Source: an uncultured Candidatus Saccharibacteria bacterium (lineage in GTDB: Bacteria > Patescibacteriota > Minisyncoccia > Phycocordibacterales > 2-02-FULL-43-11). Taken from it: a stretch of DNA of 64,000 nucleotides. Positions 16,362 through 58,873 of this stretch are shown here, piece after piece. Location of the stretch: positions 66,238-130,237 of the forward strand of contig CAYGDO010000002.1 in NCBI GenBank assembly GCA_964348785.1, read 5' to 3'. Each line of letters starts with the position of its first letter. Positions within the stretch are counted from its first letter, which is position 1. A program made the translations under genes and the position numbers. Below the pieces are notes generated by a model that was given only the letters and a program-made list of their open reading frames with translations, did no database searches and had not been told where the DNA came from.

Positions 16362-19300
16362 TTACTTTAAACTTTTAAGTAAGCTCTTCAAACTGTTTGA
16401 GAGAGACTGCAAGTTGTTAATTAATTGTCCAGCTTGACGATCAAAATACGCCTGACCTGCTGACGGCTTAAAAAATGTATTGATGACAGTACCACCAGTT
16501 TTAGGATTAATTTGAAAAACCGCAAAAGAGTTCGACAAAGAATCGTAGGCCCTTGCCACACCTCCAGCATCTATTTTTAGTGAAGTTTTACCATTCATTG
16601 CGTCAGTTACAAAATCTCTAGCACCTTTTATATACTCCTTAGTATTTTTAAATCCAAATTTCTCTGCATGTTTCCCAGCATGATAAATTGCATTATCGGC
16701 CAACGTTAACTTGGTTCCTTTACTCCAGATACCCTCAAAGACTGGCACCACTTTCCCCGCGGGTATCTCCCCCGCAGTCAATGCCCCAACGGCCGCCATC
16801 CCATAATTTCCTTTATCTACATCATCTATTACTTGGCTGACAGCAACTTGCCCAAGTGGAGTGAGTAACGATTGGGCAAAGGAAGTTATCTGTGGAGCGT
16901 ACATTGTCAAAACCCCTGCAACAGCCACTAGAGCTGGAAGAAACCTCCCATCCGGGTCTTTGTAAGTTACGGGATTATTACCTCCATACGAATACGAATT
17001 CTGAACTTGAGGATTTAAAAGAGCTTCCTTCCCTTCTTTACTCATCCCCACTTCCCAAAACACCGGATCCTGATTAAGAAACTGCCCTCTTGCTCCATCG
17101 TAGTAACGAGCATTAAGGTAAGAAAGTCCTGTACTTGCATCAAACTCCTGCCCTATATACTTCCTCTGTTCTTTTGGAGAACCTCCTTCATCTGCCCTAA
17201 TACTACCATAAGGATAATAGTCGATTAATTCCACAACTTTACCAGCGGTATCTGTGGAGAGAGTAATAGAACCAAGGTGGTCGATTAAGTGGTAAGAGAG
17301 AGATGAAGATGACGTTAGGTCTATAGGCTTTAGCTGGCGGATTGTTCCTCCTTTTTTGATTAAGACGCCACCTCCTTTCTTAACTAGAAGCTTGGAGGCT
17401 TTGAGGTTGATGTAGAGAGTGGAGTCTGCTGTGACAGTAAGAACTTTACCTACAGGGACAATGACAGAAGCGGGAGCGGTAACGGAGCCCACAATAGTAC
17501 ACGAAGAAATCAGCGTGAAATCTCCTGTTTCTGGAATAACACAAGTACCAGCGTTTGCATTTGTTAACTTTGGAGCTACGGGTGTCTTTTTGTCAAAAGT
17601 GGAGAGTAACGTGTCGCCCACAAAAACGTGAGAAGTCTCGGACACAACAACGTCGTCAGAATTGTATCCTGCGTTGAAGTATTTAGATGGATACAAAGTA
17701 ACACCGCCTTTCCCATCAGAAACCTTCACCCTAGCGCCTCCGTGATCATAAGCGTAAGTGGAAGTGGCGAGACCGTTTGCAACAGAAATTAGGCGGTTGT
17801 TGTAGTCATATATATAGGAAATATTGCCAAACGAAATCAAATTACCACTTTTGTCGTAAGAGAGAGTGTTGGTTGCCACAGAACTACCGGTAACCGTCGA
17901 CGCGTGGGGGTTGGCGTAATCGGTACCATCATAAAAATAGTTAGTAGTTGTAAACTTCCCCACAGCACTACTAAATGGGGTATTTTCATTAAAAATAGGA
18001 GCTCCGAAAGCCGTGAGATGGTATGCATTCGCCGTAAAATCGTAATAATTATTGCCAAGTTTGTAGTAAGCAACAAGATTGGCCTCATTCCCACTCAACT
18101 CAGTAAGATAATTGCTATCCAAATCAACAAGCGAACGACTTGTATTCCAAAATCGGACATCGTCAACAAGACCGTCCCAATTATGCGGATTTGGGAAAGT
18201 GGCCTTACCGATAGCCAATTCATTAAACCCGCCATAACCTCTACCGACAGCAAGAGTGGGGCCTTTCACCAAAGTATGCCCGCTGCTAGTTGATGTTGCC
18301 AAATACAAGTTCATTTCTGTGCCATTGTAAGTTCCGACAATATGGTACCAAGAGCCGACAGAGAGGGTGGTGTCATAAATTATTCTTGCCCCCCCAACTC
18401 CTTCTATATGCCTGTCAAAATTAATGTGGTGAGATCCGTCAGTATAGCTTGTAGATAAAGAGTAACCGACATTGGTCACAGCATCCTGTTGAGACGCAAT
18501 AATATTGAACCCAGCGGAAGGCAAACTTTCAGGTTTTATCCAAGCCTCTATAGTAATAGGTCCCCCAGAAATACCAGCATTAGTTGGGACGGAAGCATAC
18601 TGACTAGAGTCTCCTTCAACATCTAAAGAATATGGGTTGAGTGAAACTTGCCCTTCAATTTTACTAATAATATTTCCAAGCGGATTGTAAGCAAAAGATT
18701 GTTGATTTGGCGTCGCCAATGCATCTACCAATCGATACAAATCATCATACTTATACGTCGCGATTTTCTTTGTGTTGGTTTCCGAATTATCCACAATCTG
18801 CAAAATATTTCCGACAGAATCGTAAGTGTAGGACAAATTTTGAAGTTGTAAGTTGTTAGCTGAAAGAGTCTTTTTATTTGTTAAGCGATAAAGTCGCGCT
18901 GGATCATAGGTATTTGTAGCAACAACACCATTACCATAAGTAATCGTTTTTAGCTGACCAAGTGGCGAATAATCAAAAGCGCCGATTTGCGTTACAGGTG
19001 TAGTTGTGGAAACTCCAGTTGCCGATATTGAATCAACTAAACCTGCGGAATTGTATATGTATGAAGTTTTTTTGGAATCAACGCCGGTCATTTCTGTCAC
19101 ACCTCCTCCTAAATTGTAGAGATAACTTGAAATGAAAGTTTTACCTCCAATAATTTTAGTTTCAGTTTTTGCTTGCCCCGCGGGGGTGTATGCGTAGCTA
19201 GTACTATTCATTTCTAAATTTGCCCCGACAGAATCATCGGCATAAGAAACCGCACAAAGCTTACCGATGCCGAAATCACAGGCGTCATAAGTGTAAGTTG

Positions 19301-22300
19301 TCCTAACACCTACAGGGATAGTTGAAATTGGAGAAGAAGCTGCCTCAATTTTCCCCAATCTATTCAACGAATCGTAAGTATAAACTGTTCGCGTACCATT
19401 CGGATCGGTTTTCCCCGTAAGATTGCCGACATCGTCATACTGATATGAGTAAACCCCGAAAGCGGTGTCACTTGGCGTGTGCAAATCTTCCGCCAAAAGT
19501 CGTCTACCGGAAAAGTCATAAGTGAAATTACGAATATTTTGAAGCGCATCTGTGATTTTTACAAGATTTCCTAAAGAATCATATTCATAAAATGTGGAGT
19601 AGGTGTCGGGATAATTAAATTCATCCACACGAGTAAGTCGGCCAAAAACATCTTTATAATATATTTTACTTTTACCGAGCGTGTCGGTAATTTTTGTCTG
19701 ACCGGGACTGAAATATGTATTGGTCGTCCCTAAAGCGTCAGTTTTCTGCACATTCCTACCGAGTGCATCATAAGTAAAGCTAGTATACAAAGAACTGTCA
19801 CTCGTGGCAGAAGTTTTACCTGAACCGTCACTAAAATATGGCAAAGATTGTTTTCCAACGCGACCCTCAGAATCATAAATTATGTCTGACACAATAAAAG
19901 TATTGGGATTTTCAGATTGTTTTCGAGTTTGTATCTCCCTACCAATGCCATCAAAATAAGTGTAGGTTTCGTTTGAAAGAGTACTGTTTATGAAATCAAC
20001 TTTTTTAACAGAAATATTATTTGGAGTATCTGTGTATTGATAAATTGTTTTTGTCACTAAAGAAGCCGAAATACCCGAAACCACGACGGAATTTCCGTCA
20101 GGCTGTTTTTCTTGAAGAGTACGGCCAAAAGCGTCGTATGCTTTGGAATAAATTTGATTATTTGAATCGGTGATTTGAATTGGCTTTCCTAGAGCGTAAT
20201 CGTAAAGATAAGTGGTTTTTTGATTCAAATGATTAGTGACTGAAATCGGAAAAAGATTGTATGTGTCGTAAGAATAACCGGTAGAATTTCCATTTGCATC
20301 GGTTGATGTTGCCACAAGCGCAAACGGATTGTATGTTGCAGAAGTAATGGAATACCTACCATCAGAAATCAAAGATTCTTGTTTTGTGCCATTGCCTTCT
20401 AAAAGTTGACCAAAAGGTAAATCATCAAAATATGTTTTTGATTCCGAAATCACATTTCCAGATTGCGAATTAGTAGTTTTATGAGATACCTCGTAATGAA
20501 TTTGTATTGAAGTTGAAGTGGAAACGCCCGCGTTTGAAGCGTACTCAACATTAGTTATAGTTTTGTCATTTCCAATATCAACAAAAGAATAAGAAGCGAG
20601 CGTGTTTGTTGACGCGGAAGTTACCTCGCCATAATCAACAGAAGAAATTAAATTGCCATTTGAGGTATCGTATGAATATTCCGTAGCGTGATCTTTGTGA
20701 GAAGTCGTGCCGTCAAAACTTTCTTCAATCTTTTTAGAAAGATACACAAATACCGGTGCGGAAGAAGTAAAGCCTGCTGAATTTACTCCCGCTAAAGGAG
20801 ACTCACTATAAATATTTTGATTTCTGGCGAACAACTTACCCTCCCTATCAAAAACTTCTGTTTTATATACAGAGCCGATTTTGCCGTAACTATCCCCTGT
20901 TTCTCCAGTTGAAGAGTTATCACCATTCCCCTGATGAAAATATGAAATTGTCACAGATTTTCCGGAATCTTTTGTAACCTTGCCAAATCCGGCAAATTTT
21001 CTATCGTGCGAACCGTTAAAAAATCCTTGCCCATCTGCGTAAGTGTATGTATCTACTTGTGGCTCTCCACCCACGCCATCGGTTGTAGTTATTTTGGACA
21101 CAATCCAAAGAACTGTTGGCAGTTTTAGATTAAACCGCTCACCCGAAGCGGAAGTTTTGTAATCAATAGATGTTTTTCCGCCTTGCGGGTAAGTTATAGT
21201 TTTTAAAATATCCGCTCTTGTTGTGGGGCCACTTGGAATATCAACGAGGGTGTCACCGTTGGTGTCATAGTAGTCGGTCAGTTGATAGGAAAAATTCCAC
21301 TTCCAATTGTAAGGATTTATTTTAATAAAATATGGAGACTTGAGGGTTGAACTTTTTACAAATCCATTTCCTGTATTTATGTAAACTTCATTATAATCCC
21401 CTGTTGTGTACCCGTTATCAAAATTTGGGTTGTTTGGCAAAACCCAACCACGCAAAACATCAACTAGCCCGTCAGCGTTAATATCCAGATACCGAACCCC
21501 CATATCATTACCGTCACCATCAGTCATCATTAATGTGTGGTCAGGTGAATCACCAAAAATAGGAACCATTGGTCCAGTTAACCCCCCATCTCCAGTACCT
21601 ATACGAAAAGAACTGTATCTATCGCTAGTCTTTGTATCATCTAAACCATCACCATTAACATCCATCGCACCCACTCGCCTCCTCTCCTCCCACCCAGATA
21701 TTTCGCGTCCATAAATTTCTGGTAGGCCATCTCCATTTGTGTCTGCAACGAAAGAGCCTTTGGCTACTAGCAAAGGAGTGGTAGTTGATATGTATGTATA
21801 ACTATTATCCAAACTATTAATACCGCTATTCAGATAAAGTGTCGGTGGATTGGGAGGAGGAGGACAGGTGGCGTTGGTACAACTACCTGCATTAAAGAGT
21901 GTAACCGGAACACCGAAAAAATCAGTTAAACCGTCACCATTCAAATCCGCAATACGCGCACCACTATCCTCTGGGCCTGAACCGTTTGAACCCCTAGTAT
22001 GATAAGCAAATCTTAAATTAGGTAGGGAATTTGAACCCGCTACGCCTAACTTGTTCCACTCCACCTGAATATTAAAACTATTTGATTCATAAGGGTTAAT
22101 TCCAAGCACAAATGAATCTGTGTAGCCATCACCATTCAAATCAGCATAAACATCTCCCCCTCTTTCTGGACCGTAAAAGAAAGAGCCGAGAGCCCAACTA
22201 AACGTACCGGATGAAATAGCAGGCTCAAGCCCCGTCGGTAAAACAGGATTTTCAAACCCCTTCGTGTACTCAAAAGTTGTTTGCGGTAAAGTTGTTGCAA

Positions 22301-23615
22301 CGTTTTGGGAGTCGTAGCCAGTTTCAGTAATTCCTGAAAGGATTGAACGTACGCCGTTTACACCAACTCCGTAGGCAAATTCGTATTTCTTTTTCAAAAT
22401 ATCACTGACACGAATTTCAATTATTTTGAGTCGTTTGGCATTGGTACTTAAAAATGCAAACTTGTATGAAGAAATAGCACTGTCTGAACGAGTATCTTCA
22501 TATACAAAAGTGACTTTGTAAATTCCAGATACAACTTCTCCGGAATTTGCCTGATGATTGGTATAAGTAATTTCAGTTGGATATACCTGACCGCCAGTTA
22601 CCGTATAGTTATATGAAATGTAATTACCGTTTGAATCACGGACTTCATCTAGATACCATTTAGCAACACGAGAAGCATTTGCAGGGTCCGCGTTTCGTGA
22701 AGTTGCCACCGAACCGAAAGTGTAGACTCTGCCGTTTTTATCATAAACCTTCCAACTCGTAGTGGTGGCGTTGTAAACATATTTCAAAAATTCGCCGGAA
22801 TCAACGCGAGGTTGATATAAACCAGCAATTGTAGTTGAGGCTAATTCACCGGATAAGCTGGAACTGAAATAATCTTGACCATACATTACTATATTTCCCT
22901 GCTTATTGATTCTCTCAATTGATGGAATGTTAAAATCCCAACCATACCCCATCGTATTTATGTTGGAATTCTCGGACGAGTTATATGAAATATTTAAAGA
23001 TGTCTCAACACCTGCCCTACCGGAAGGTGTAACAATCGGATAGGAATATGAAAGCGCTCCCGAGGAAGCATTGGCTTCGGGAAGAGTGGTTTTTCTATAA
23101 GCAAAATTGGAATTATCGTAAGTGGTTGGCTTGTTTTCCAACTGAGCGCTAGTGGCTTCAATTTCTGGAGGTAACAAGTCTTGCGCGTCCGGAGAAACCT
23201 CTGGAATTTCAGTGTCCAACTTTGGAGCTTCCGGAGCAATCTCGGGCACCACTTCAGTTTTTGGATTTGCATCTACAGTTGTTTCGGGAGTTATTTGTGT
23301 CGGGTCAGGTAAAATAGTAGAGCCTATTTCAGAATTTTCTGATGCAGAACTGCTTGGTGTTGATGTATCAGGAGAAACGTTGGTCTCAGCTGGGGTAGAT
23401 GGAGATGCAGTTTGGTCAGAGGAGGTTTCAACGGAAGCTACGGGGACAGGAGGTTGCGAAGCAACCTCCTGCGCAAACGCCACAGCAATCGGTTGCATTA
23501 AAAAAGCAACCACCAAAAAACTGGTTACGATTTTTTGCGTATTTGATTTTCTTATTTTCTTTGTAGAAACAATTGAAAAAAAGAAATTCATAGAATTTTT
23601 ACTGACACTTCCCAA
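16362..23615 (-). CDS. Tc-toxin-like TcB/TcC fusion / RHS polymorphic toxin: signal, S/T/P linker, SpvB domain, FG-GAP beta-propeller, YD repeats with LamG insertion, RHS core, C-terminal toxin domain
   Basis: SpvB-like N-terminal region. 'ADLNGDGLTD/DVNGDGLDD/LDINADGLVD' FG-GAP repeats. Many YD repeats ('YTYDALGR','YEYDSLGNL','YQYDDVGNL'). RHS core 'YHLIDHLGS...YYPYG...RYYDGARGQFLNQDPV...NPVTYKDPDGRF'. About 195-aa tip follows. Confidence 0.85.
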   Translation of the reverse strand: MGSVSKNSMNFFFSIVSTKKIRKSNTQKIVTSFLVVAFLMQPIAVAFAQEVASQPPVPVASVETSSDQTASPSTPAETNVSPDTSTPSSSASENSEIGSTILPDPTQITPETTVDANPKTEVVPEIAPEAPKLDTEIPEVSPDAQDLLPPEIEATSAQLENKPTTYDNSNFAYRKTTLPEANASSGALSYSYPIVTPSGRAGVETSLNISYNSSENSNINTMGYGWDFNIPSIERINKQGNIVMYGQDYFSSSLSGELASTTIAGLYQPRVDSGEFLKYVYNATTTSWKVYDKNGRVYTFGSVATSRNADPANASRVAKWYLDEVRDSNGNYISYNYTVTGGQVYPTEITYTNHQANSGEVVSGIYKVTFVYEDTRSDSAISSYKFAFLSTNAKRLKIIEIRVSDILKKKYEFAYGVGVNGVRSILSGITETGYDSQNVATTLPQTTFEYTKGFENPVLPTGLEPAISSGTFSWALGSFFYGPERGGDVYADLNGDGYTDSFVLGINPYESNSFNIQVEWNKLGVAGSNSLPNLRFAYHTRGSNGSGPEDSGARIADLNGDGLTDFFGVPVTLFNAGSCTNATCPPPPNPPTLYLNSGINSLDNSYTYISTTTPLLVAKGSFVADTNGDGLPEIYGREISGWEERRRVGAMDVNGDGLDDTKTSDRYSSFRIGTGDGGLTGPMVPIFGDSPDHTLMMTDGDGNDMGVRYLDINADGLVDVLRGWVLPNNPNFDNGYTTGDYNEVYINTGNGFVKSSTLKSPYFIKINPYNWKWNFSYQLTDYYDTNGDTLVDIPSGPTTRADILKTITYPQGGKTSIDYKTSASGERFNLKLPTVLWIVSKITTTDGVGGEPQVDTYTYADGQGFFNGSHDRKFAGFGKVTKDSGKSVTISYFHQGNGDNSSTGETGDSYGKIGSVYKTEVFDREGKLFARNQNIYSESPLAGVNSAGFTSSAPVFVYLSKKIEESFDGTTSHKDHATEYSYDTSNGNLISSVDYGEVTSASTNTLASYSFVDIGNDKTITNVEYASNAGVSTSTSIQIHYEVSHKTTNSQSGNVISESKTYFDDLPFGQLLEGNGTKQESLISDGRYSITSATYNPFALVATSTDANGNSTGYSYDTYNLFPISVTNHLNQKTTYLYDYALGKPIQITDSNNQIYSKAYDAFGRTLQEKQPDGNSVVVSGISASLVTKTIYQYTDTPNNISVKKVDFINSTLSNETYTYFDGIGREIQTRKQSENPNTFIVSDIIYDSEGRVGKQSLPYFSDGSGKTSATSDSSLYTSFTYDALGRNVQKTDALGTTNTYFSPGQTKITDTLGKSKIYYKDVFGRLTRVDEFNYPDTYSTFYEYDSLGNLVKITDALQNIRNFTYDFSGRRLLAEDLHTPSDTAFGVYSYQYDDVGNLTGKTDPNGTRTVYTYDSLNRLGKIEAASSPISTIPVGVRTTYTYDACDFGIGKLCAVSYADDSVGANLEMNSTSYAYTPAGQAKTETKIIGGKTFISSYLYNLGGGVTEMTGVDSKKTSYIYNSAGLVDSISATGVSTTTPVTQIGAFDYSPLGQLKTITYGNGVVATNTYDPARLYRLTNKKTLSANNLQLQNLSYTYDSVGNILQIVDNSETNTKKIATYKYDDLYRLVDALATPNQQSFAYNPLGNIISKIEGQVSLNPYSLDVEGDSSQYASVPTNAGISGGPITIEAWIKPESLPSAGFNIIASQQDAVTNVGYSLSTSYTDGSHHINFDRHIEGVGGARIIYDTTLSVGSWYHIVGTYNGTEMNLYLATSTSSGHTLVKGPTLAVGRGYGGFNELAIGKATFPNPHNWDGLVDDVRFWNTSRSLVDLDSNYLTELSGNEANLVAYYKLGNNYYDFTANAYHLTAFGAPIFNENTPFSSAVGKFTTTNYFYDGTDYANPHASTVTGSSVATNTLSYDKSGNLISFGNISYIYDYNNRLISVANGLATSTYAYDHGGARVKVSDGKGGVTLYPSKYFNAGYNSDDVVVSETSHVFVGDTLLSTFDKKTPVAPKLTNANAGTCVIPETGDFTLISSCTIVGSVTAPASVIVPVGKVLTVTADSTLYINLKASKLLVKKGGGVLIKKGGTIRQLKPIDLTSSSSLSYHLIDHLGSITLSTDTAGKVVELIDYYPYGSIRADEGGSPKEQRKYIGQEFDASTGLSYLNARYYDGARGQFLNQDPVFWEVGMSKEGKEALLNPQVQNSYSYGGNNPVTYKDPDGRFLPALVAVAGVLTMYAPQITSFAQSLLTPLGQVAVSQVIDDVDKGNYGMAAVGALTAGEIPAGKVVPVFEGIWSKGTKLTLADNAIYHAGKHAEKFGFKNTKEYIKGARDFVTDAMNGKTSLKIDAGGVARAYDSLSNSFAVFQINPKTGGTVINTFFKPSAGQAYFDRQAGQLINNLQSLSNSLKSLLKSLK

Positions 23616-42644: not shown

Positions 42645-44516
42645 TTAAACAAGCACGGCCTTGATTCTTCTTACTCCAGCTGAAACAGCTTCTTCTTTAG
42701 AAATTTTAAACGTACCAACAAGCTCGCTGGTATTCGAAACATGAGGACCTCCACAAAATTCTTTTGAGTATGCGTTGTCTAATGTATCTCCAATGTAATA
42801 GATGGAGACCTCATCACCATATTTCTCACCAAAAAAATGTCTGGCTCCAGTTTTTTCAGCATCTTTTAAAGGCATAACGATCTTGTTAACTGGCAATTTA
42901 GCTTTTATTTTATCATTTACTATTTCTTCTGCTTTCTTAATTTGTTCTGCTGTCATTTTTTGGGGATATGAAAAATCAAATCGAAGTCTTTCGGAAGTAA
43001 TATTACTTCCCTTTTGACCTACGCCTTCGCCCAAGACATCATGCAAAGCTTGATGCAATAGATGCGTCGCAGTGTGATATCGGACAACTTGCTCACTATT
43101 GTCAGCCAAACCTCCTTTAAATTTTTGTTCGGCGCCTGCGCGAGAAAGATCTTGATGTTTTTTCATTTCAGATTTAAATCCCTCTAAATCAACCGCGACA
43201 CCCCTTTCGACTGCAAGTTCCAAAGTCATCTCAATCGGAAATCCGTAACTAGAAAAAAGGACAAACGCGTCCCTGCCAGAAATATTATTTTTTGCTAATT
43301 TCTCAAATTCACGCAAACCGAACATAATTGTACCAACGAATTTAGTTTCCTCTAGAGCGATTTTATTTTCTATTTCTGCCTGTTTTGCCAAAAGGTTTGG
43401 ATAACAATCTTTATACTCCTCAATTATCTTGCCGACAAAAAAAGCTGCCGAGATGTCAGATTTAAGCTTATGAAGATGGTATACCGCTCTTCGCAAAATC
43501 CGTCTAACGAAATAACCTTGATCAGTATTTGAAGGATCAACACCGTCACCAATCAAAAATACAACGGCACGTAGATGATCTGCAACGATACGAAAGGATT
43601 TTTTCAGCGATAAGTCTCCGTAAGATTTTCCAGACAATTTCTCTAATTCTTTTATAAATGAATCAAAAACATCAATATTAAAAATATCTCTATAATCATT
43701 AACAGCCATCGCCATACGCTCTAATCCTCCACCGAAATCTACATTCCTCTGCGGTAATTTTGAAAAAGTTCCATCAACATTTTTCTTGTATTCCATAAAC
43801 ACATTATTACCGATCTCCAAAAAACGCCCGCAATCGCAGTTGGGGTGACAATGCTCACCAAACTTTTTGTCATGAATAATATCTGTAAATTCATAGAACA
43901 TTTCTGAATCCGGTCCTCCTGGCTCTCCTTTTGGCATATTCTCAGGAATTCCAGCTCTACTCCACCAATTTTTCCTAGCATCGTAATAAAAAATTCTTCC
44001 GCCTTGCATACCCAACTTATAACCATTTTCTTCGCTACCTATTTCTACTTCCTTGGCTTCCAATCCTTTTTGATTAAAGAGATTTTTCCATAACTCTGCG
44101 GATTCAACATCTTTAGGAATATTATTTTTTTTGTCACCAATAAAAACTGTAAAATATAATTTTTTAGGATCAATATTCATCTCTTCCGTTAAAAACTTAA
44201 ACATCCACTCTACCTGCTCTTTTTTAAAATAGTCACCAAGAGACCAATTACCCAACATTTCAAAAAAAGTAGTGTGACGATTGTCACCCACTTCTTCTAT
44301 ATCTACTGTACGAAAAGATTTCTGTGAATCAGCAATTCTACTGCCGAGAGGATGTTTTTCTCCAAGCAAATAAGGCACCATAGGTTGCATACCAGAACCA
44401 GTAAAAAGTGTAGTTGGGTCATTTTCAGGCACCAAAGAAGCAGAAGGAATGATGGCATGTCCTCTTTTTTTAAAGAAATCTAAAAATCTTTGCCTTATTT
44501 CATTTGAAGTTAACAT
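42645..44516 (-). CDS. alaS: alanine--tRNA ligase, short form lacking the C-terminal C-Ala domain
   Basis: AlaRS N-terminus '...DPTTLFTGSGMQ...FEMLGNWSLGDYFK'. Editing-domain 'HTATHLLHQAL' and 'CGGPHV'. 623 aa. Confidence 0.85.
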   Translation of the reverse strand: MLTSNEIRQRFLDFFKKRGHAIIPSASLVPENDPTTLFTGSGMQPMVPYLLGEKHPLGSRIADSQKSFRTVDIEEVGDNRHTTFFEMLGNWSLGDYFKKEQVEWMFKFLTEEMNIDPKKLYFTVFIGDKKNNIPKDVESAELWKNLFNQKGLEAKEVEIGSEENGYKLGMQGGRIFYYDARKNWWSRAGIPENMPKGEPGGPDSEMFYEFTDIIHDKKFGEHCHPNCDCGRFLEIGNNVFMEYKKNVDGTFSKLPQRNVDFGGGLERMAMAVNDYRDIFNIDVFDSFIKELEKLSGKSYGDLSLKKSFRIVADHLRAVVFLIGDGVDPSNTDQGYFVRRILRRAVYHLHKLKSDISAAFFVGKIIEEYKDCYPNLLAKQAEIENKIALEETKFVGTIMFGLREFEKLAKNNISGRDAFVLFSSYGFPIEMTLELAVERGVAVDLEGFKSEMKKHQDLSRAGAEQKFKGGLADNSEQVVRYHTATHLLHQALHDVLGEGVGQKGSNITSERLRFDFSYPQKMTAEQIKKAEEIVNDKIKAKLPVNKIVMPLKDAEKTGARHFFGEKYGDEVSIYYIGDTLDNAYSKEFCGGPHVSNTSELVGTFKISKEEAVSAGVRRIKAVLV

Positions 44517-51191: not shown

Positions 51192-52229
51192 TTACGATAT
51201 ATGGTACCTATTCTCTTTATCTTTATAAAAATATCGAGTATTTTGTAGATTAACCAAAATGGTATTTTCCTTTACGTATCTTTCTTTCATGACCTTATCA
51301 ATAATCTCCTGTTTAGTCATCGGACCATTTTTATCCAAAACCTTCTTTATTACGTCTTTGACTACGCCAGAAACATAACCCCACTCCGACAAAGCATAAA
51401 GACCTCTACCCACCAAAACAAATCTTTTATCTTTTATGAGTTCATTGTGAGTGGTGGCAATGTGAGCCTTTTTACCAAAAAGTTTTTCAATAGATTTGGC
51501 TACTTCCACAAAGTGAATCGGTGAACCGTGTTTTCTAAGAACCAAAAAAGCGTAATCTCTTATACCTTTTGCTTTAATATTCGGAGAAGAAACTAAACCC
51601 CATTCACCAAGAGGATTTTTACCAATGGTCTTTGAAATCGATAACCATCTTCTGATAATGTCGTCCTTCTTATAATGATCGGCAACATCCTCAACATGAG
51701 TCAAAAATTGAGCAATAATATCAAGTTCTGAAACTAAATGGTCTTCATTCAAATTTTCATAAAGTTTTTTTAATGCCTTGTGAACTTTCTCAGCGAGTTG
51801 TTCATTAACATACCAACGATGTTTAAAATGGTCATCATCTTTTTCTTTTTTGAACGAACCTCCTAACACCAAAAGAAAATGTATGTGGTTCTGTATACTT
51901 TTATCATTTGAGATATGGTTCAATAGATCATCCTCTCCAACCATTCCACCAAGAGTCTCCAAGAGTTGCTCTAATTCAACAAAAACATCCTTTTCTTTAG
52001 AATAGATTTCTGACTTTTTTATACTATGAAGAGCGTAATTTTCTATTTGCCTAACTCTTTCTCTTGTAATGCCATATTTCTTGCCAATAGCCTCCAGTGT
52101 CATCTTGTGAGAATCCTTTCCTAAACCAAATCTGCCCGTCAAAACATCCCTTGCTCTGTCAGGCAAAGCGGTTAGAAGTCTCTTCACTACCTGCTTTGGC
52201 TTGCTATTTATTGCATTTTTGGCACTCAT
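51192..52229 (-). CDS. sigma-70 region-4-like HTH domain protein
   Basis: 'TLEAIGKKYGITRERVRQIE' region-4.2-like HTH at the N-terminus. C-terminal HTH-like 'GPMTKQEIIDKV'. Confidence 0.5.
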   Translation of the reverse strand: MSAKNAINSKPKQVVKRLLTALPDRARDVLTGRFGLGKDSHKMTLEAIGKKYGITRERVRQIENYALHSIKKSEIYSKEKDVFVELEQLLETLGGMVGEDDLLNHISNDKSIQNHIHFLLVLGGSFKKEKDDDHFKHRWYVNEQLAEKVHKALKKLYENLNEDHLVSELDIIAQFLTHVEDVADHYKKDDIIRRWLSISKTIGKNPLGEWGLVSSPNIKAKGIRDYAFLVLRKHGSPIHFVEVAKSIEKLFGKKAHIATTHNELIKDKRFVLVGRGLYALSEWGYVSGVVKDVIKKVLDKNGPMTKQEIIDKVMKERYVKENTILVNLQNTRYFYKDKENRYHIS

Positions 52230-52336: not shown

Positions 52337-55300
52337 CTAAACGACCAAACTTACCAGCTTACCTTTAACATAAATTTCCTTTTTTATACTCTTACCCTCT
52401 ATCCAATTCTGCACCTCTTTAAGGCTTTTTGCCCTAGCAAACACTTCATCTTCCGATATGTCCTTCGAAACTAAAAATTGCCCTCTAATTTTGCCATTTA
52501 TTTGAACCATTATCATAAACTCATCATCAACCATCTTAGTTTCATCATATTTTGGCCAACTTTCTAGCGCAATAATGTCTTTATTCCCTAACTCATTCCA
52601 TAGTTCTTCCGCTAAATGAGGGGCGAATGGCGAAAAAATTTTAAGATAATCTTCAAACATCTTTTTTGGAACAAAATCAGAAGAATCCATCTCATTGGCA
52701 CAAATCATAAGAGCTGAAATGGTCGTGTTAAATCTCATACCCTCTATATCTTCACCAACTTTTTTTATAGTCTTATGAACAAGAGTTTCTAATTTATTAT
52801 TAATGTTTTCTTTTGTAGCCTCTATCCTAGAGTTGGCGAGCTGGCTTACAACTTTTTGTCCTATTCTCCATACTTTTTCAACAAATCTTCTTGCTCCAAC
52901 AATTCCATCAACACTCCAACTAATGGCCTGATCAAAAGGTCCCATAAACATTTCATAAATGCGCAAAGAATCAGCACCAAGTTTGTTTACAATATCATCA
53001 GGATTTATAACGTTCCCTTTAGATTTGGACATTTTTACGCCACCTTCTGCCAAAATAAGACCGTGGGAAGTTCTCTTATTATAGGGTTCTTTGGTTGGCA
53101 CAACACCAATATCAAATAAAAATTTATGCCAAAAACGAGAATACAAAAGGTGCAATGTTGTATGTTCCATTCCACCGTTATACCAATCCACGGGGCCAGT
53201 TTTTAGTTGATAGTTTTTAGTTGATAGTTTTTCGGAAATACCGGACCAATAATTAAATTCTTTATCAAAATCTTGAATCTTTAATTTTTTATTTTTGATT
53301 TTTGATTTCATCAAATACGCGAGGTAATACCAAGAACTACCGGCCCAATTTGGCATAGTGTCAGTCTCTCTTCTAGCATGCCCTCCACAATGAGGACATT
53401 TTGTATTCACCCATTTTTCAATAGATGATAAAGGTGACTCACCGTCATCAGTTGGTTGATATTTCTCCACATTGGGTAATTTAACAGGCAAATCTTTTTC
53501 TGGAACTGGGATAAATCCCGATGGAATTGTTAGACCAAAAACTGCTGGTTCATCAGATCCACAAAAATGTCTATCAGAAGGATAAGCAAAATTGACTTCA
53601 ACTCCATATGCTAAGGCCAAAGCATCATTTTCTTTTTTTGGAATAACGCCCTCCGAACTATCACCTAGCACTTCAACAAATTTTGTCTTAGTCCGAGCTT
53701 TTTTGAAATCAAACTCCCAATCATTACTTTTTTCAACACCCTCTCTTCTCTTATCAGAAAAGTTGGGGCTAATAAAGCTGTCTACAAAAACTACTTTATG
53801 AATTTTCGTCTTGAGTCTCGGCAAAAGCTTGTGGACAACAATTCCCCCCAAACTGTGGGCAACGATAATCGTATTTTCATTAAATTCAACATTTTTAAGC
53901 AAAAAATCTACCTGTTCGTCTATTTTTATACCATCCTTACCAATCGGTAAATTTTTAGCAAAGACCGAGTGCCCACCCGCTAATAATCTTCTTTTGAGTT
54001 CCGGGAAAAAATTAGCGTCTACTGAACCACCTCTGCCATGAATGATGACAAAATTAAATTTTTGCTTGGCACATTGTTCACAAAAAACTACTGGAATTGG
54101 TTCACCCCAATAATGTTGTCTTGAAAAAACCCAATCGCGAAGTTTATAATTAATAGCTTTTTTGCCCCAACCATTTTTAATCAAAAACTTTATGATGTCT
54201 TCCCGCGCCTCATCCCATCTTCGCCCTTTGAATTCTACCGGCTCTTCAAGAATACCATCCTCCTCCCGATAAAAAATTTCTTGTTTCCTAACAAGCTCGG
54301 CCTTAACCTCGTCTTTTGGAAAAAGCACTGGATGAAGTGGTATATCGAATTTTTTGGCAAAAGCATAATCTCGTTCATCATGAAAACTACAATTAACAAC
54401 ACCCGTACCATAATCAGAGACAACAAACGAAGCGACCCAGATTGGTAACTGTCTTTTAGCTGGAATATAATCAACATATCGCCCTGTAAAAATTCCATCC
54501 ATCTCACCTGTCTTTTCGTAAACACCGTTTGAACGTTTAGCAATCATCTCTTTCGCCTTCTTCATTACACCGTCCTCAAACTGTGTACCTTTTACTAGTT
54601 CAAAAAGCTTTGGATGATCCGGAGCAATTACAGTGAAAGTCTGCGCCATATAGGTTTGAGGAATTGAATCATACATCTCAAAATGCATATCTAGATCTTT
54701 AACTTTGAACTGTAGATTAACTCCTTCTGAACGTCCGATCCAATTTCTTTGCTGAATTTTTATTTTTTCCAAAAAATTTACATCGTCTAAATCTTTATCC
54801 AATCTGTCAGCATATTTTGTAATAGCAAGCATCCACTGCTCTTTGTCTTTCTTTTCAACTGGAGTACCACATCTTTCACAACATCCATCAACCACCTCTT
54901 CATTTGCTAAACCAATTTTATCTTTTGGACACCAATTTATAGGCATTTTCTTTTTGTATGCCAAACCATGTTTCAACAATTGAAGAAAAATCCATTGCGT
55001 CCATTTGTAATATTTAGGATCAGTAGTATTTATTTCTCTATCCCAATCAAAAGAAAATCCTACCGCCTTCAACTGCCTCCTGAAAGTATCTGTGTTTTGT
55101 TTAGTAACCTTTATGGGATGAATACCTGTTTTGATAGCATAATTTTCTGTTGGTAATCCGAAAGCATCCCAACCAATAGGATACAAAACATTAAAACCCT
55201 CCATCCTTCTTTTTCGACAAATCACATCCATAGCTGTATTCGAGCGAATATGCCCAACGTGAAGTCCATCGCCTGAAGGATAAGGAAATTCAATCAACCC

Positions 55301-55402
55301 GTAAAATTTAGGTTTTTTACTTCCATCAACGGCCTTGAAAATTTTCTTCTTTTCCCAAACTTTTTGCCATTTATTTTCTATCTTTTTATGGTCATAATCC
55401 AT
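52337..55402 (-). CDS. leuS: leucine--tRNA ligase carrying an inserted alpha/beta-hydrolase-like domain
   Basis: 'P..GDGLHVGH' HIGH, 'KMSKSKGN'. CP1 'IWVASFVVSDYGTGVVNCSFHDERDYAFAKKF'. About 230-aa insertion between 'CEQCAK' and 'KCPHCGG' contains 'IIHGRGGS' and 'AHSLGG'. Confidence 0.9.
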   Translation of the reverse strand: MDYDHKKIENKWQKVWEKKKIFKAVDGSKKPKFYGLIEFPYPSGDGLHVGHIRSNTAMDVICRKRRMEGFNVLYPIGWDAFGLPTENYAIKTGIHPIKVTKQNTDTFRRQLKAVGFSFDWDREINTTDPKYYKWTQWIFLQLLKHGLAYKKKMPINWCPKDKIGLANEEVVDGCCERCGTPVEKKDKEQWMLAITKYADRLDKDLDDVNFLEKIKIQQRNWIGRSEGVNLQFKVKDLDMHFEMYDSIPQTYMAQTFTVIAPDHPKLFELVKGTQFEDGVMKKAKEMIAKRSNGVYEKTGEMDGIFTGRYVDYIPAKRQLPIWVASFVVSDYGTGVVNCSFHDERDYAFAKKFDIPLHPVLFPKDEVKAELVRKQEIFYREEDGILEEPVEFKGRRWDEAREDIIKFLIKNGWGKKAINYKLRDWVFSRQHYWGEPIPVVFCEQCAKQKFNFVIIHGRGGSVDANFFPELKRRLLAGGHSVFAKNLPIGKDGIKIDEQVDFLLKNVEFNENTIIVAHSLGGIVVHKLLPRLKTKIHKVVFVDSFISPNFSDKRREGVEKSNDWEFDFKKARTKTKFVEVLGDSSEGVIPKKENDALALAYGVEVNFAYPSDRHFCGSDEPAVFGLTIPSGFIPVPEKDLPVKLPNVEKYQPTDDGESPLSSIEKWVNTKCPHCGGHARRETDTMPNWAGSSWYYLAYLMKSKIKNKKLKIQDFDKEFNYWSGISEKLSTKNYQLKTGPVDWYNGGMEHTTLHLLYSRFWHKFLFDIGVVPTKEPYNKRTSHGLILAEGGVKMSKSKGNVINPDDIVNKLGADSLRIYEMFMGPFDQAISWSVDGIVGARRFVEKVWRIGQKVVSQLANSRIEATKENINNKLETLVHKTIKKVGEDIEGMRFNTTISALMICANEMDSSDFVPKKMFEDYLKIFSPFAPHLAEELWNELGNKDIIALESWPKYDETKMVDDEFMIMVQINGKIRGQFLVSKDISEDEVFARAKSLKEVQNWIEGKSIKKEIYVKGKLVSLVV

Positions 55403-55465: not shown

Positions 55466-58400
55466 TTAATTTGTCACAACATCAGTAGAAGAGGCTGTCG
55501 GTTCTATAATCGCCGGCATAGTCGTAGTAGATATATCGATAACAGGTAAAGTTGTTGACGCTTGAGAGTTCGGATTAAAAACAACTACAGTCCTTGTGGA
55601 AGTGGCAAAATTCATCATTGAATCATGGGCAACCCAAACTACTTCATAGGTACCCTCTCTAGATGTGTCCACTGTGCTACTTGCCAAATCAGGCATCAAG
55701 CTTTGCCCTTTAGAATCTAAAGCTGTGGCCCCCAAATCAATATACGTAGAATTTAAAGCGATTTCTGATGGGTTATTACCAATAAGAGTAATGACGGGTG
55801 TAGAAGTTGATACTACATTTGTCTGATTATCAATTTTTATATTAGAAAATACAGTTTTAAATTGTTCTTTAGTAACACATATATCCTCCAAACAAAGTTC
55901 TTTAGTCTCAACTCGATCAAACACTCCTAAAACTGAAGTAATTTTTGAGCCCATCCACTCAGCAACATTTGAGACAAAACTAGAAACCGTAGAAGTTGAA
56001 ATTTTAGATTCTAAATTCAAAATTCTTGATTCAATATCATTTAGACGAATAGAAGAAAAAACCGGAACGGAAATTAAAGTTGAGGAGGCCGTTGAAGATG
56101 CAATGGAAAAAGTGCTTGTTGCCGTCTGCCTCATATTTAAAACTGAAGCCAAATCTTGAACCGCAGAAACTGTTAAAGCTGTTAAGTTGCCATAAGAAAT
56201 ACCTTTACTACCCTCTTCACCAGAAACCACTTCAGGAATTTCTTTCTCGATATCTTGAGCAATAAAACCTATTTGAGGTAAGTGGTTCCCTTTCATCTCA
56301 TAATAAACAGGTTTTAAATTTAAAATGGATTGAAAAGAATATTTATTATTTAAAGGAATAATATTTTCCTTGTACGAAATATCAGATGCGCTAGTCCAAG
56401 CTCCAGCAGCATTTAAAGTCGCAGTATTTAATGACCCCCCTGTATCTCCTCCCAAAAAGGACATTACCCCAGACGTATTCATATATATGCTACGAAAATC
56501 AGTATTACCCGTTTCAGCTATATAAAGACCGCCCGTTTGATCATTAGCCGATTGAGTAATTGATAATCTGGCAGTAGGCGATGTTGTGCCCAATCCAATA
56601 ACACCAGTATTTTTAACTATAAAATCAGTTCTAGTTGAGGAGCCAATAACAAAAGATGGTCCGCCTATGCTATTTGGATTTATAGAAAATTGACCCCATG
56701 GAGTAGTAGTACCAACACCTAAATTACCATCAGAAGATTGTGCATAAAAAGTCGGATATAAATTATTTATAAAAGTTGAAATATATGATGATGTGCCGTG
56801 GATCACATCCTTAAGGCCATCACCATTTACATCCCCGACTGCAATTGAATTACCAGCCCCAACCGTATTATAAAGTTTTCGTGTTCTGAAAGTTCCATTA
56901 CCATTATTAATCAAAACTGATATTTGAGCTGTATTATTATTAGGAATAACTATATCTGGCCTAGTATCATCATTTAAATCACCGATAGCTATAACGAAAG
57001 GATTAACAATAGAAATACTATAAGCAACAGGTGATGCCAAAGTTCCACTAGTACTTCCCATAAAAATTGATACAGTACTTGGACCATTTGCGTTTGTAGA
57101 AACAACGTCATCATAGCCATCACCATCGAAGTCATCTACTCCTACCCAATAAGGCTGACCACTATTTGGCGAATAATCCGTCCTTGTGGCAAGAGTCCCA
57201 TCACCATTATTTAAAAAAATAGAAATTTTTGAACTACTCCAACAAGCAGTTGCGACATCCAACCAACCATCACCGTTAAAATCACCAAAAGTTGCCCCTC
57301 TTGAAGCAGAAAGATTCGAATAAGATACATAAGATGCAAAAGTGCCATCGCCATTATTCAAAAGAACGGAAATACCGCTAGCTCCTTGTGCCACCGCAAC
57401 AATATCATTCCAACCATCCCGATTAATATCACCAATATCGACACCATTAGGCCCAGCGCCAGTTGAATAATCAACTTTATTAGCAAAAGTTCCATCACCA
57501 TTATTTATAAAAACAGAAATAGTATTCGCGGTATAATTCCCAACAATTACATCTTGCGAACCGTCATTGTTTACATCACCTATAATAGAATCAATAGGAT
57601 TTGTACCCGCAGTATAGGTTACAGGAGCAGATAACACACCGGAGCTATTTAAAAACACTGTCATATTACTATTTGTATAATCCACACCAACAGCGTCAAC
57701 CCGTCCGTCACCATTTAAATCAGCAGTTTTGTCTCCCAAGGCGGCGCCAGTTGCAGATAAATCTACTCTTGTAGCAAAACTACTATCCATTTTAGAAACA
57801 GTTAAACCGGATGGTCCATTAACCTTCAGAGAACCAGCAAAAGTAGACGTGGCATTATAAGTATTAGTAGTTAAATTACCAGAAACAAATGCGTCACCAA
57901 CCACAGTAAACTTAACAAAAGGTGAGGATGTACCAACGCCAACATTACCTCCATTAGTGACAACAAAATTTGTAGCGGTAGAAGAACCTATCACAAAAGA
58001 TGGTGTTGTTATGCCATTTGGATTTATAGAAAATTGACCCCAAGGTGTACTAGTCCCGACTCCGATTCTGTTATTAATAGAATCGACATATAAAGTCCCA
58101 GAATCAAAATTGACATCGCTTGAAATTGTAGAAGTACCCGAACTTAAAGAAACAGTGAGTACTCCAGAAATAGTTGTGGAACCGCCAGATAAAGCTCCAG
58201 AAAAATTTCCGGTAACACTATCTAATCCTCCAGTTAAAGTGATAGAAGAACCGGAAAAAGAAGAATCTGAAATTGTGGCTCCACTTATAGTAACACTCGA
58301 TAATTTATCTATTTTATTAGATAAAGATATAGCTTGATAAACAGGAGCTAAAGATAAAGAATTATATGCTTGCTGTTTTTGTTGTTGATTAGCAACTAAA

Positions 58401-58873
58401 TATTTTATTTCGCTAATTTGTCTCTCCAATTTAAGCTTCAAATCATTAACGGAATTATCTATATCATTTTGAGATACACCAGAAATTTCTATTGTTTTAA
58501 TAATTTTTATTTGAGGTTCTTTTTTTTCTTCGGGCACAATATCTTGTGATTGTCTTGGCGTTGTTGAACTAACAACCGTGTTTAAATTTGCACCAAAACT
58601 TAAAGAATTTACAGAAGCCGGCAAATGATTGACCTTATCAAGCAAAACTGAAAAAGATGCTGAGGTATGATTAAAAATTCTAACCACTGTTCTGTTAAAA
58701 TTTAAAGCAAAATAAAAAGGAGCTCTTAAAACTTCAGAAAATGAAAGGGCCGAAGCAAAAGAGGGTGAAAAAATAAAAGAAGTAAACACCAAAATAACCA
58801 AAAAAATGTTTAGATTATTTTTTATGCTTTTATTCCACATACTTAAGACAAAAAACTTTTTTATCTCGTTCAT
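55466..58873 (-). CDS. large secreted surface protein: tail-fiber-like GxGTxTP repeats, FG-GAP beta-propeller, peptidase-S74 intramolecular-chaperone domain, C-terminal Ig-like (DUF5011-like) domain
   Basis: Signal peptide. 'NRIGVGTSTPWGQFSINPN' repeated. Seven 'D(L/V/F)N(G/N/R/D)DG..D' FG-GAP motifs. 'SDISYKENIIPLNN...LKPVYYEMKGNHLPQIGFIAQDIEKEIPEVV' S74 chaperone motif. 'VITLIGNNPSEIALNSTYIDLGATALD' Ig-like. Confidence 0.7.
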   Translation of the reverse strand: MNEIKKFFVLSMWNKSIKNNLNIFLVILVFTSFIFSPSFASALSFSEVLRAPFYFALNFNRTVVRIFNHTSASFSVLLDKVNHLPASVNSLSFGANLNTVVSSTTPRQSQDIVPEEKKEPQIKIIKTIEISGVSQNDIDNSVNDLKLKLERQISEIKYLVANQQQKQQAYNSLSLAPVYQAISLSNKIDKLSSVTISGATISDSSFSGSSITLTGGLDSVTGNFSGALSGGSTTISGVLTVSLSSGTSTISSDVNFDSGTLYVDSINNRIGVGTSTPWGQFSINPNGITTPSFVIGSSTATNFVVTNGGNVGVGTSSPFVKFTVVGDAFVSGNLTTNTYNATSTFAGSLKVNGPSGLTVSKMDSSFATRVDLSATGAALGDKTADLNGDGRVDAVGVDYTNSNMTVFLNSSGVLSAPVTYTAGTNPIDSIIGDVNNDGSQDVIVGNYTANTISVFINNGDGTFANKVDYSTGAGPNGVDIGDINRDGWNDIVAVAQGASGISVLLNNGDGTFASYVSYSNLSASRGATFGDFNGDGWLDVATACWSSSKISIFLNNGDGTLATRTDYSPNSGQPYWVGVDDFDGDGYDDVVSTNANGPSTVSIFMGSTSGTLASPVAYSISIVNPFVIAIGDLNDDTRPDIVIPNNNTAQISVLINNGNGTFRTRKLYNTVGAGNSIAVGDVNGDGLKDVIHGTSSYISTFINNLYPTFYAQSSDGNLGVGTTTPWGQFSINPNSIGGPSFVIGSSTRTDFIVKNTGVIGLGTTSPTARLSITQSANDQTGGLYIAETGNTDFRSIYMNTSGVMSFLGGDTGGSLNTATLNAAGAWTSASDISYKENIIPLNNKYSFQSILNLKPVYYEMKGNHLPQIGFIAQDIEKEIPEVVSGEEGSKGISYGNLTALTVSAVQDLASVLNMRQTATSTFSIASSTASSTLISVPVFSSIRLNDIESRILNLESKISTSTVSSFVSNVAEWMGSKITSVLGVFDRVETKELCLEDICVTKEQFKTVFSNIKIDNQTNVVSTSTPVITLIGNNPSEIALNSTYIDLGATALDSKGQSLMPDLASSTVDTSREGTYEVVWVAHDSMMNFATSTRTVVVFNPNSQASTTLPVIDISTTTMPAIIEPTASSTDVVTN

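Follow-up and report, generated by a model that had tools for sequence, protein, structure and literature searches.

Why does a leucyl-tRNA synthetase (LeuRS) carry a second enzyme domain inside one of its zinc knuckles, and what could that domain do there? The question is raised by the leuS gene in a 64,000-nucleotide (nt) stretch of contig CAYGDO010000002.1, from an uncultured Candidatus Saccharibacteria bacterium; the whole of this stretch is called the window. The gene encodes a bacterial-type LeuRS with a serine hydrolase domain of the RBBP9/YdeN family inserted in its ZN-2 knuckle. The explanation favoured here, with moderate confidence, is that of an acyl or aminoacyl hydrolase that works as an autonomous housekeeping enzyme and sits in a loop tolerant of insertions, the LeuRS around it staying functional. 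The host gene, the inserted domain and the two cysteine pairs are given below in amino acid (aa) and window numbering; alignment A3 consists of 50 LeuRS, insert-bearing and insert-free relatives.

52337-55402, minus strand: leuS, bacterial-type leucyl-tRNA synthetase and host of the nested domain; uninterrupted open reading frame (ORF) of 1021 aa; TIGR00396; full-length AlphaFold2 model
53519-54067, minus strand: nested RBBP9/YdeN-family serine hydrolase domain, aa 446-628 (183 aa), from alignments, Pfam and fold
54071-54082, minus strand: first CxxC of the ZN-2 zinc knuckle (Cys441, Cys444), invariant, equivalent to Thermus thermophilus C439/C442
53387-53398, minus strand: second CxxC of the ZN-2 zinc knuckle (Cys669, Cys672), invariant in A3, equivalent to T. 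thermophilus C484/C487

The identity of the host was analysed with the TIGR00396 leuS_bact model, against which the whole protein scored 882.7 bits, passing the equivalog cut-off of 548.4. Plain close relatives that have no insert are 805-830 aa long, so the window LeuRS is about 200 aa over the usual size, as the initial annotation had stated. Its placement of the insert inside a Cys4 zinc knuckle was borne out as well. The four cysteines, which lie in the motifs FCEQCAK (aa 440-446) and KCPHCGG (aa 668-674), were positioned by alignment to the T. thermophilus structure 1h3n and are invariant in all 50 relatives with or without the insert. The ZN-2 Cys4 knuckle is specific to bacterial and mitochondrial LeuRS.

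The boundaries of the insert were obtained from two comparisons. The phmmer alignment to 1h3n breaks off at query residue 445, corresponding to T. thermophilus 443, and picks up at query residue 629, again corresponding to 443; and the motif CxxC-G-(W/I)-V-P-V-P-E-K-D-L-P runs contiguous in the insert-free relatives. For these reasons the inserted segment was defined as aa 446-628, with all host residues kept. It lies between Cys444 and Gly629, matching C442|G443 of T. thermophilus, directly after the first CxxC. The initial annotation had described a domain of about 230 aa; that a domain is inserted holds, and its size is corrected to 183 aa, about 230 being the span between the cysteine pairs. 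The other ~40 aa of this span (GFIPVPEKDLPVKLP...) are native ZN-2 sequence, which is found in insert-free LeuRS too.

Such an arrangement could in principle be an assembly chimera, or an intein-like element that gets removed, and the probability of this is considered negligible. No point supports it beyond a weak imperfect 15-nt repeat flanking the insert. Against it stands the same in-frame architecture in many dozens of independent assemblies (NCBI, JGI, ENA, Logan), the identical LeuRS protein being on record from NCBI, ENA and Logan. Every host residue is retained across a clean junction, and the frame is continuous, as had been noted earlier, over the one ORF at 52337-55402. The absence of intein termini was likewise confirmed: the insert starts with K446-Q447, not with Cys, Ser or Thr, and ends with P627-S628 before G629, with no terminal His-Asn plus nucleophile. 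The Pfam scan of the LeuRS gave no match to HINT or any intein family. The codon composition also matches, the GC content at third codon positions being 0.284 for the insert versus 0.288 for the host parts, and this equality indicates long residence of the insert.

The flanking repeat, 80% identical between 53522-53536 and 54092-54106, brackets the insert near both junctions and reads G-L-T-I-P and G-E-P-I-P on the coding strand. It is probably due to chance. The flanking-repeat search for a mobile-element signature around the insert gave this repeat alone.

The family of the inserted domain was then established from profiles and models. Pfam PF06821 (Ser_hydrolase) matched with 29.0 bits for the insert alone and 24.9 bits within the whole protein, above the gathering cut-off of 22, and relatives at the same LeuRS site reached up to 53 bits. 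The nearest solved structures by sequence were Bacillus subtilis YdeN (E 2e-7) and then human RBBP9. A profile of 29 LeuRS inserts was aligned to RBBP9 by hhalign with a probability of 99.3% (E 1.4e-20). AlphaFold2, run on the insert with the alignment of these 29 inserts, gave a predicted local distance difference test score (pLDDT) of 96.5 and a predicted template-modelling score (pTM) of 0.93. Foldseek ranked RBBP9 and YdeN first for this model, with template-modelling scores (TM) of 0.79-0.83. Structure prediction and profile comparison thus both returned the alpha/beta-hydrolase fold that the initial annotation had claimed, with RBBP9/YdeN nearest. As judged from profiles and the predicted model, the insert is a lid-less alpha/beta serine hydrolase of the RBBP9/YdeN type, with the self-contained minimal fold of about 180-190 aa that marks this family. 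The profile and fold searches revealed matches to alpha/beta-hydrolase families only and no homology of the insert to CP1, AlaX, YbaK or DTD. A search of the insert alone against an index of 5.8 billion proteins gave no match, the word index and the E-value scale being limiting there.

The catalytic positions were assigned with the help of two alignments. Alignment A1 holds the 29 LeuRS inserts, 17-70% identical to the window copy; alignment A2 holds eight sequences of the close subgroup and was used for the scan of GTDB loci, A1 being too diverse. The positions are as follows.

54035-54040, minus strand: His455-Gly456, HG oxyanion-hole motif after strand beta1, within IIHGRGGS; insert H9 and G10 invariant in A1
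53843-53860, minus strand: nucleophile elbow AHSLGG, aa 515-520, with Ser517 at 53852-53854; insert S71 invariant in A1, aligned with RBBP9 Ser75
53567-53569, minus strand: triad histidine His612; insert H166 invariant in A1, aligned with RBBP9 His165
53651-53662, minus strand: candidate triad acids Asp581 (53660-53662) and Glu584 (53651-53653), from A2 conservation and the hhalign register

Five columns are invariant in A1, and four of them are His455, Gly456, Ser517 and His612. The oxyanion motif and the GxSxG elbow, both pointed out earlier, are therefore kept throughout the 29 inserts, and this invariance over so divergent a set indicates that the catalytic residues are under selection. 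Human RBBP9 (PDB 2qs9, 7oex), B. subtilis YdeN (PDB 1uxo) and the enzyme ML-005, of PF06821/COG3545, have the HG motif, the GxSxG elbow and the C-terminal histidine equivalently placed. Unlike these free-standing proteins, the window domain is nested in another enzyme, and its identity to them is 19-25%. It also differs from RBBP9 in an apparent shift of the acid to Asp581 (insert D135), which is invariant in A2 and lies three residues before the position of RBBP9 Asp138. By hhalign, Glu584 (insert E138) stands opposite that Asp138, and this column varies in the main subtype. In the same register the position of RBBP9 Glu108 is an Arg in the insert, with an invariant Asp (insert D104) two residues earlier.

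The varying Asp138 column, together with a Pfam match of the window copy mainly to the N-terminal half, would fit a catalytically dead structural or regulatory spacer, for example a scaffold for protein-protein contacts. This is very unlikely, since all 29 copies, divergent as they are, keep the HG motif, the nucleophile serine and the histidine, another Asp three residues upstream is invariant in the close subgroup, and the complete fold was modelled at high confidence. RBBP9 itself is an aminopeptidase that prefers aromatic residues over Leu and whose substrates must offer a free alpha-amine, which Glu108 anchors (PMC8866121); a reference title in PMC7730578 names it as an enzyme that activates valacyclovir, an L-valyl ester. 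The YdeN homologue ML-005 is a short-chain esterase with the same Ala-His-Ser-Leu-Gly elbow as the insert, the acid being D164, and mutation of its Ser, Asp or His abolishes activity (PMC6119806). By analogy with the biochemistry of RBBP9 and ML-005, the nested domain is most likely active and acts on small soluble esters or amides of acyl or alpha-aminoacyl groups.

The state of the host bears on whether the insert leaves the synthetase working. Pfam placed the class I catalytic domain, the LeuRS editing domain and the anticodon-binding domain, and the relevant elements are listed below.

55250-55261, minus strand: HVGH (HIGH) class I signature, aa 48-51; H48, G50 and H51 invariant and V49 nearly invariant in A3
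53021-53035, minus strand: KMSKS class I signature, aa 790-794; K790, S792, K793 and S794 invariant and M791 nearly invariant in A3
54182-54748, minus strand: CP1 editing domain, aa 219-407, of a divergent class; Pfam PF13603, 123.5 bits
53198-53308, minus strand: second small lineage-specific insertion, about aa 699-735 (KNKKLKIQDFDKEFNYWSGISEKLSTKNYQLKTG), outside the hydrolase; unaligned stretch versus 1h3n, low model confidence

The full-length AlphaFold2 model of the LeuRS had a pLDDT of 85.7 and a pTM of 0.78, with the insert region at 85-96. Superposed on the Escherichia coli and T. thermophilus enzymes, it gave target-normalised TM values of 0.77-0.83, the value of 0.83 being for E. 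coli LeuRS in the aminoacylation state. The protein resembles the T. thermophilus (1h3n, 2bte) and E. coli (4aq7) LeuRS in its class Ia core with HIGH and KMSKS, the CP1 after ZN-1, the ZN-2 Cys4 knuckle, the anticodon-binding domain and the C-terminal domain. It differs from them in the 183-aa enzyme domain in ZN-2 and in a divergent T-rich editing motif. It also has no leucine-specific domain, which sits before KMSKS in both reference enzymes (region aa ~780-800), and carries the extra low-confidence insertion of about 40 aa at 699-735. There pLDDT is low over aa ~700-740, 49-54 in places and below 50 at aa 725-735. From the intact HIGH, KMSKS and four zinc cysteines and the LeuRS-like predicted core, the host should still charge tRNALeu. 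Conversion of either ZN-2 cysteine pair to Ala abolishes aminoacylation by LeuRS1 of Natrialba magadii (PMC4005665).

The distribution of the insert was analysed in the LeuRS of related genomes, and it recurs in many Patescibacteria and DPANN and is absent from other close relatives. Among the 120 best LeuRS homologues, all of them Patescibacteria-like, 30 have the hydrolase at exactly the site of the window protein. Three insertion hot spots were revealed in this set: site A at the CP1 entry (reference 207 or 235-237), site B inside CP1 after DIPLHPV (reference 363) and site C in the zinc knuckle (reference 445). The Pfam guests are NUDIX, mostly at B and sometimes at A; Ham1/ITPase-like domains at A or B; and HAD at B; the serine hydrolase occupies site A in P0113 and P0116. 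Eight architectures occur among the 120 homologues, with proteins of up to 1536 aa. As read from these alignments, guest hydrolases (this one, NUDIX, ITPase-like and HAD) fill three LeuRS loops in at least eight combinations. Some insert-free relatives show 8-aa expansions at site C, one relative has an unrelated 50-aa insertion, and a second, YdeN-like hydrolase subtype is also found at site C. The loop after the first CxxC is, by this comparison, permissive. Relatives bearing other enzymes include P0006, P0019, P0023, P0026, P0042, P0084, P0113 and P0115, with NUDIX single or in tandem, and P0019 has an extra segment of about 180 aa upstream of its NUDIX domain.

The profile search was exhaustive over 1.84 billion representatives at E <= 1e-3 and gave 9279 relatives. 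The best 150 comprise about 70 free-standing proteins of 175-200 aa and about 60 LeuRS-embedded copies. Relatives are encoded in 339 GTDB species genomes; 76 of the best 80 GTDB loci are in bacterial-type LeuRS (about 25 at site C and about 50 at the CP1 entry) and four are in isoleucyl-tRNA synthetase (IleRS). In a domain tree of 268 extracted domains, the nearest neighbour came from the same site for 63 of 68 site-C copies and for 82 of 83 CP1-entry copies, and the YdeN-like subtype formed a small separate clade. With these site-specific clades plus the separate one, the domain phylogeny indicates that hydrolases were captured independently at least two or three times and then retained vertically over long periods.

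Hosts other than LeuRS are informative for the function. Members of the hydrolase family were found in the wing/scaffold region of SecA, between the halves of TsaD, after the catalytic domain of alanyl-tRNA synthetase (AlaRS), at the C-terminus of adenylate kinase (Adk) and between the GTPase domains of Der/EngA (P0145, P0184, P0203, P0209, P0222). Further fusions join the hydrolase with NUDIX, Peptidase_S51 (P0242), IMPase and glyoxalase. In the IleRS of metagenome-assembled genomes (MAGs) labelled Saccharibacteria (L076, L077, L079, L080) the hydrolase lies at the CP1 entry. The same guests are seen, on domain assignment, in IleRS, AlaRS, TsaD, SecA, Der and Adk too. Free-standing copies in L081-L083 lie in a NUDIX / Ser_hydrolase / HAD_2 / NTPase_I-T cluster (about 4066-7754 in L081), the same enzyme set that is found nested in LeuRS.

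Two side observations concern the IleRS hosts. The hydrolase is accompanied there by an ArsC/LMW-phosphatase-like domain in L077, by GNAT in L080 and by NUDIX in L079. Locus L089 (1-3487) encodes an IleRS-like class I synthetase that has a His_Phos_1 domain nested in it and is closely followed, downstream, by a gene for a free-standing hydrolase.

The non-aminoacyl-tRNA hosts (SecA, Der, Adk, TsaD), the loops shared with other enzymes and the clusters of free-standing copies are the reasons why an autonomous hydrolase is favoured. It forms one polypeptide with a bacterial-type LeuRS and loops out of ZN-2 after the first CxxC. There it folds independently, as predicted, with a triad of Ser517, His612 and either Asp581 or Glu584 and an oxyanion hole at His455-Gly456, and it would act outside the aminoacylation and proofreading cycle. 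Its location would reflect a habit of the Patescibacteria and DPANN, in which small hydrolases (this one, NUDIX, ITPase-like, HAD) are kept free and clustered, fused to one another, or placed in surface loops that tolerate them, the hosts being large, essential proteins made constitutively. The host most often found is LeuRS. The modules are inherited with the LeuRS genes and occasionally swapped between them. The earlier proposal of a moonlighting lipase or esterase comes nearer to this evidence. The data establish the architecture, the fold, the conserved catalytic residues, the distribution and the mosaicism; that the domain is catalytically active, what class of substrate it takes and that it is independent of the tRNA cycle are inferred.

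The alternative proposed in the initial annotation was an extra editing or deacylase module. The domain would hydrolyse mischarged or surplus aminoacyl-tRNALeu, or a non-cognate aminoacyl-adenylate, as a built-in trans-editing factor. As a primary role this was not supported and is considered unlikely. The free alpha-amine requirement of RBBP9 and its cleavage of aminoacyl amides (PMC8866121), as well as the valacyclovir activation named in the PMC7730578 reference title, are in its favour. So are the presence of the module at two LeuRS sites and in IleRS and AlaRS, all of them editing synthetases, the dominant and old association with LeuRS, and the requirement of ZN-2 for aminoacylation (PMC4005665). 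The pTM of the full-length model suggests, in addition, that the position of the domain may be fixed. Weighing against it, SecA, Der, Adk and TsaD contain the module as well. The same LeuRS loops are used by domains for which editing is not a plausible task (NUDIX, ITPase-like and HAD), and free copies cluster with those enzymes or with peptidases. Known editing modules (CP1, AlaX or the second additional domain, YbaK/INS and DTD) would share the chemistry, hydrolysis of the A76 aminoacyl ester, if a deacylase were the right answer; unlike them, the window hydrolase sits in a protein that already holds CP1. To our knowledge, none of CP1, AlaX, YbaK/INS and DTD has an alpha/beta-hydrolase fold or a Ser-His-Asp triad.

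The CP1 domain of the window protein was compared with that of its relatives, as its T-rich motif is non-canonical and could speak for an extra editing site. YDSIPQT takes the place of TTRPDT, with T252 kept and T247, T248, R249 and D251 replaced, and HDERD is retained; the latter presumably carries the conserved Asp, E. coli D345. Two CP1 classes exist in the Patescibacteria LeuRS, a canonical one with TTRPDT (~180-200 bits on PF13603) and a divergent one (~120-135 bits) with YDSIPQT/YNSVPQT or FSAHFEA, the last having no Thr252 equivalent. Compensation of a degenerate CP1 by the hydrolase was tried as an explanation and rejected. The closest CP1 relatives (P0004, P0007, P0009), which share the divergent class, are insert-free. 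Of the 30 site-C LeuRS, 23 retain TTRPDT in canonical or near-canonical form, and the presence of the insert therefore does not follow the loss of CP1 editing. Both results also tell against an editing role in general. Since the closest CP1 relatives do without the insert, the LeuRS appears to be independent of it.

The same comparison revealed that segments of the window LeuRS match different relatives. Over residues 1-224 it shares 94% identity with P0002, a LeuRS that bears the insert. Its CP1 domain is much closer to that of the insert-free P0004 and P0007 (81-84% identity) than to that of P0002 and P0006 (only ~27-39%). The nearest hydrolase copy, at 70% identity, is in P0006, the LeuRS core of which is only 59.5% identical; the next-best copies reach 41-49%. 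By these identities the window LeuRS is a mosaic, and modules of LeuRS genes are exchanged between lineages. With CP1 removed, the tree placed the window LeuRS in a 13-member insert-bearing clade. The scattering of the insert over the LeuRS tree was also considered and found to be partly an artefact of this CP1 mosaicism; without CP1 only a few singletons, such as P0006, are discordant.

A role in amino-acid supply was also weighed. The domain would be an aminopeptidase freeing N-terminal hydrophobic residues of scavenged peptides beside the synthetase and would help auxotrophic, peptide-dependent cells to charge tRNALeu (as well as tRNAIle and tRNAAla). This is judged quite improbable. It agrees with the aminopeptidase activity of RBBP9 (PMC8866121), with the Peptidase_S51 fusion in P0242 and with the presence of three synthetases for aliphatic amino acids among the hosts. 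Gene neighbourhoods agree as well: in L086 (4366-5537) a free-standing copy overlaps the upstream Peptidase_S51 gene by 4 nt, at start and stop codons, and would be co-transcribed with it, and in L087 and L088 the copy adjoins a Peptidase_M29 aminopeptidase (L087 4001-5741). On the other side, the characterised bacterial family member ML-005 is a short-chain esterase (PMC6119806), and RBBP9 favours aromatic residues and not Leu (PMC8866121). The hosts include proteins other than synthetases, the associations are with NUDIX, HAD and ITPase, and a free amino acid would diffuse off, so that channelling is not obviously useful.

The boldest proposal, which is doubtful in our judgement, extends the editing role to a third kind of proofreading or deacylation site. 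In LeuRS (and IleRS and AlaRS) of the candidate phyla radiation (CPR) and DPANN, a Ser-His-Asp alpha/beta-hydrolase would act on aminoacyl-tRNA or aminoacyl-adenylate independently of CP1. In its broader form LeuRS would be a multi-enzyme quality-control hub, with the nested NUDIX, ITPase and HAD domains clearing Ap4A, aminoacyl-AMP and pyrophosphate, the composite gene having moved between bacteria and archaea.

Several points weigh against the favoured explanation, that of an autonomous housekeeping hydrolase. The triad acid is split between two candidates, Asp581 and Glu584. The subfamily nearest the insert resides almost entirely in LeuRS and forms two clades, each tied to one site. The search profile was built from LeuRS inserts, which biases the host counts. 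Three of the other hosts are synthetases (IleRS, AlaRS and an unassigned one of class I); IleRS and AlaRS edit and TsaD acts on tRNA, so that the synthetase and TsaD hosts could reflect a tRNA-linked role. RBBP9 cleaves alpha-aminoacyl esters or amides whose amine is free, and aminoacyl-tRNA deacylation is exactly this chemistry.

Composite LeuRS genes were also found in archaea. Fifteen LeuRS loci from DPANN MAGs (Woese-, Pace-, Nano- and Iainarchaeota) scored 890-927 bits on TIGR00396 and have the hydrolase at the CP1 entry; alignment with the bacterial reference stops short of the C-terminal domain.

DPANN LeuRS loci: L020, L036, L038, L041, L042, L048-L050, L053, L056, L058, L060, L064, L068, L069

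In the two neighbourhoods that were examined, L036 and L058, a short bacterial-type AlaRS gene adjoins leuS, and the surrounding genes are of archaeal kind, with EndA and a PACE-CTERM S-layer protein among them. The sequence comparison suggests inter-domain transfer of the composite LeuRS gene.

Aminoacyl-tRNA synthetases are a textbook case of modular evolution, with editing, RNA-binding and signalling domains as known additions. A complete second enzyme of an unrelated superfamily inside the essential ZN-2 knuckle is a new architecture. The nesting of housekeeping hydrolases in essential translation proteins is widespread in ultra-small bacteria and archaea and apparently undescribed. A full-text literature search of the searchable library found no paper on a hydrolase-bearing LeuRS or on the wider nesting pattern. 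Automatic annotation already recognises the combination, as in the JGI name 'leucyl-tRNA synthetase/predicted alpha/beta hydrolase family esterase'. At the annotation level, NCBIfam NF040702 (isoleucine--tRNA ligase, N-acetyltransferase domain-containing) is similar in being a class Ia synthetase with an unrelated nested enzyme. The window protein differs from it in host (IleRS there), guest (GNAT there) and site, and scores 79 bits against a cut-off of 1999.

An autonomous hydrolase would illustrate how extremely reduced genomes fit housekeeping enzymes into essential genes; one coupled to the tRNA cycle would represent a new class of proofreading domain. The nested LeuRS offers a clean natural system for the study of domain insertion tolerance, a way into the function of the bacterial YdeN family, which is poorly understood, and a marker for CPR-DPANN gene transfer. 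It would be a surprise for synthetase specialists and is experimentally tractable; nothing at present indicates that the working of LeuRS is altered.

The surroundings of leuS in the window include the following genes.

55466-58873: FG-GAP repeat protein, 1135 aa, with Peptidase_S74 (endosialidase chaperone) and Ig-like domains, immediately upstream of leuS
51192-52229: protein with Sigma70 region 4 and HARE-HTH, 345 aa, immediately downstream of leuS
42645-44516: short AlaRS, 623 aa, with no nested domains
16362-23615: RHS/SpvB/TcdB-type toxin-like protein, 2417 aa

No tRNA genes were found in the 64-kb window. All 30 ORFs of at least 250 aa in window positions 1-64000 are on the minus strand.

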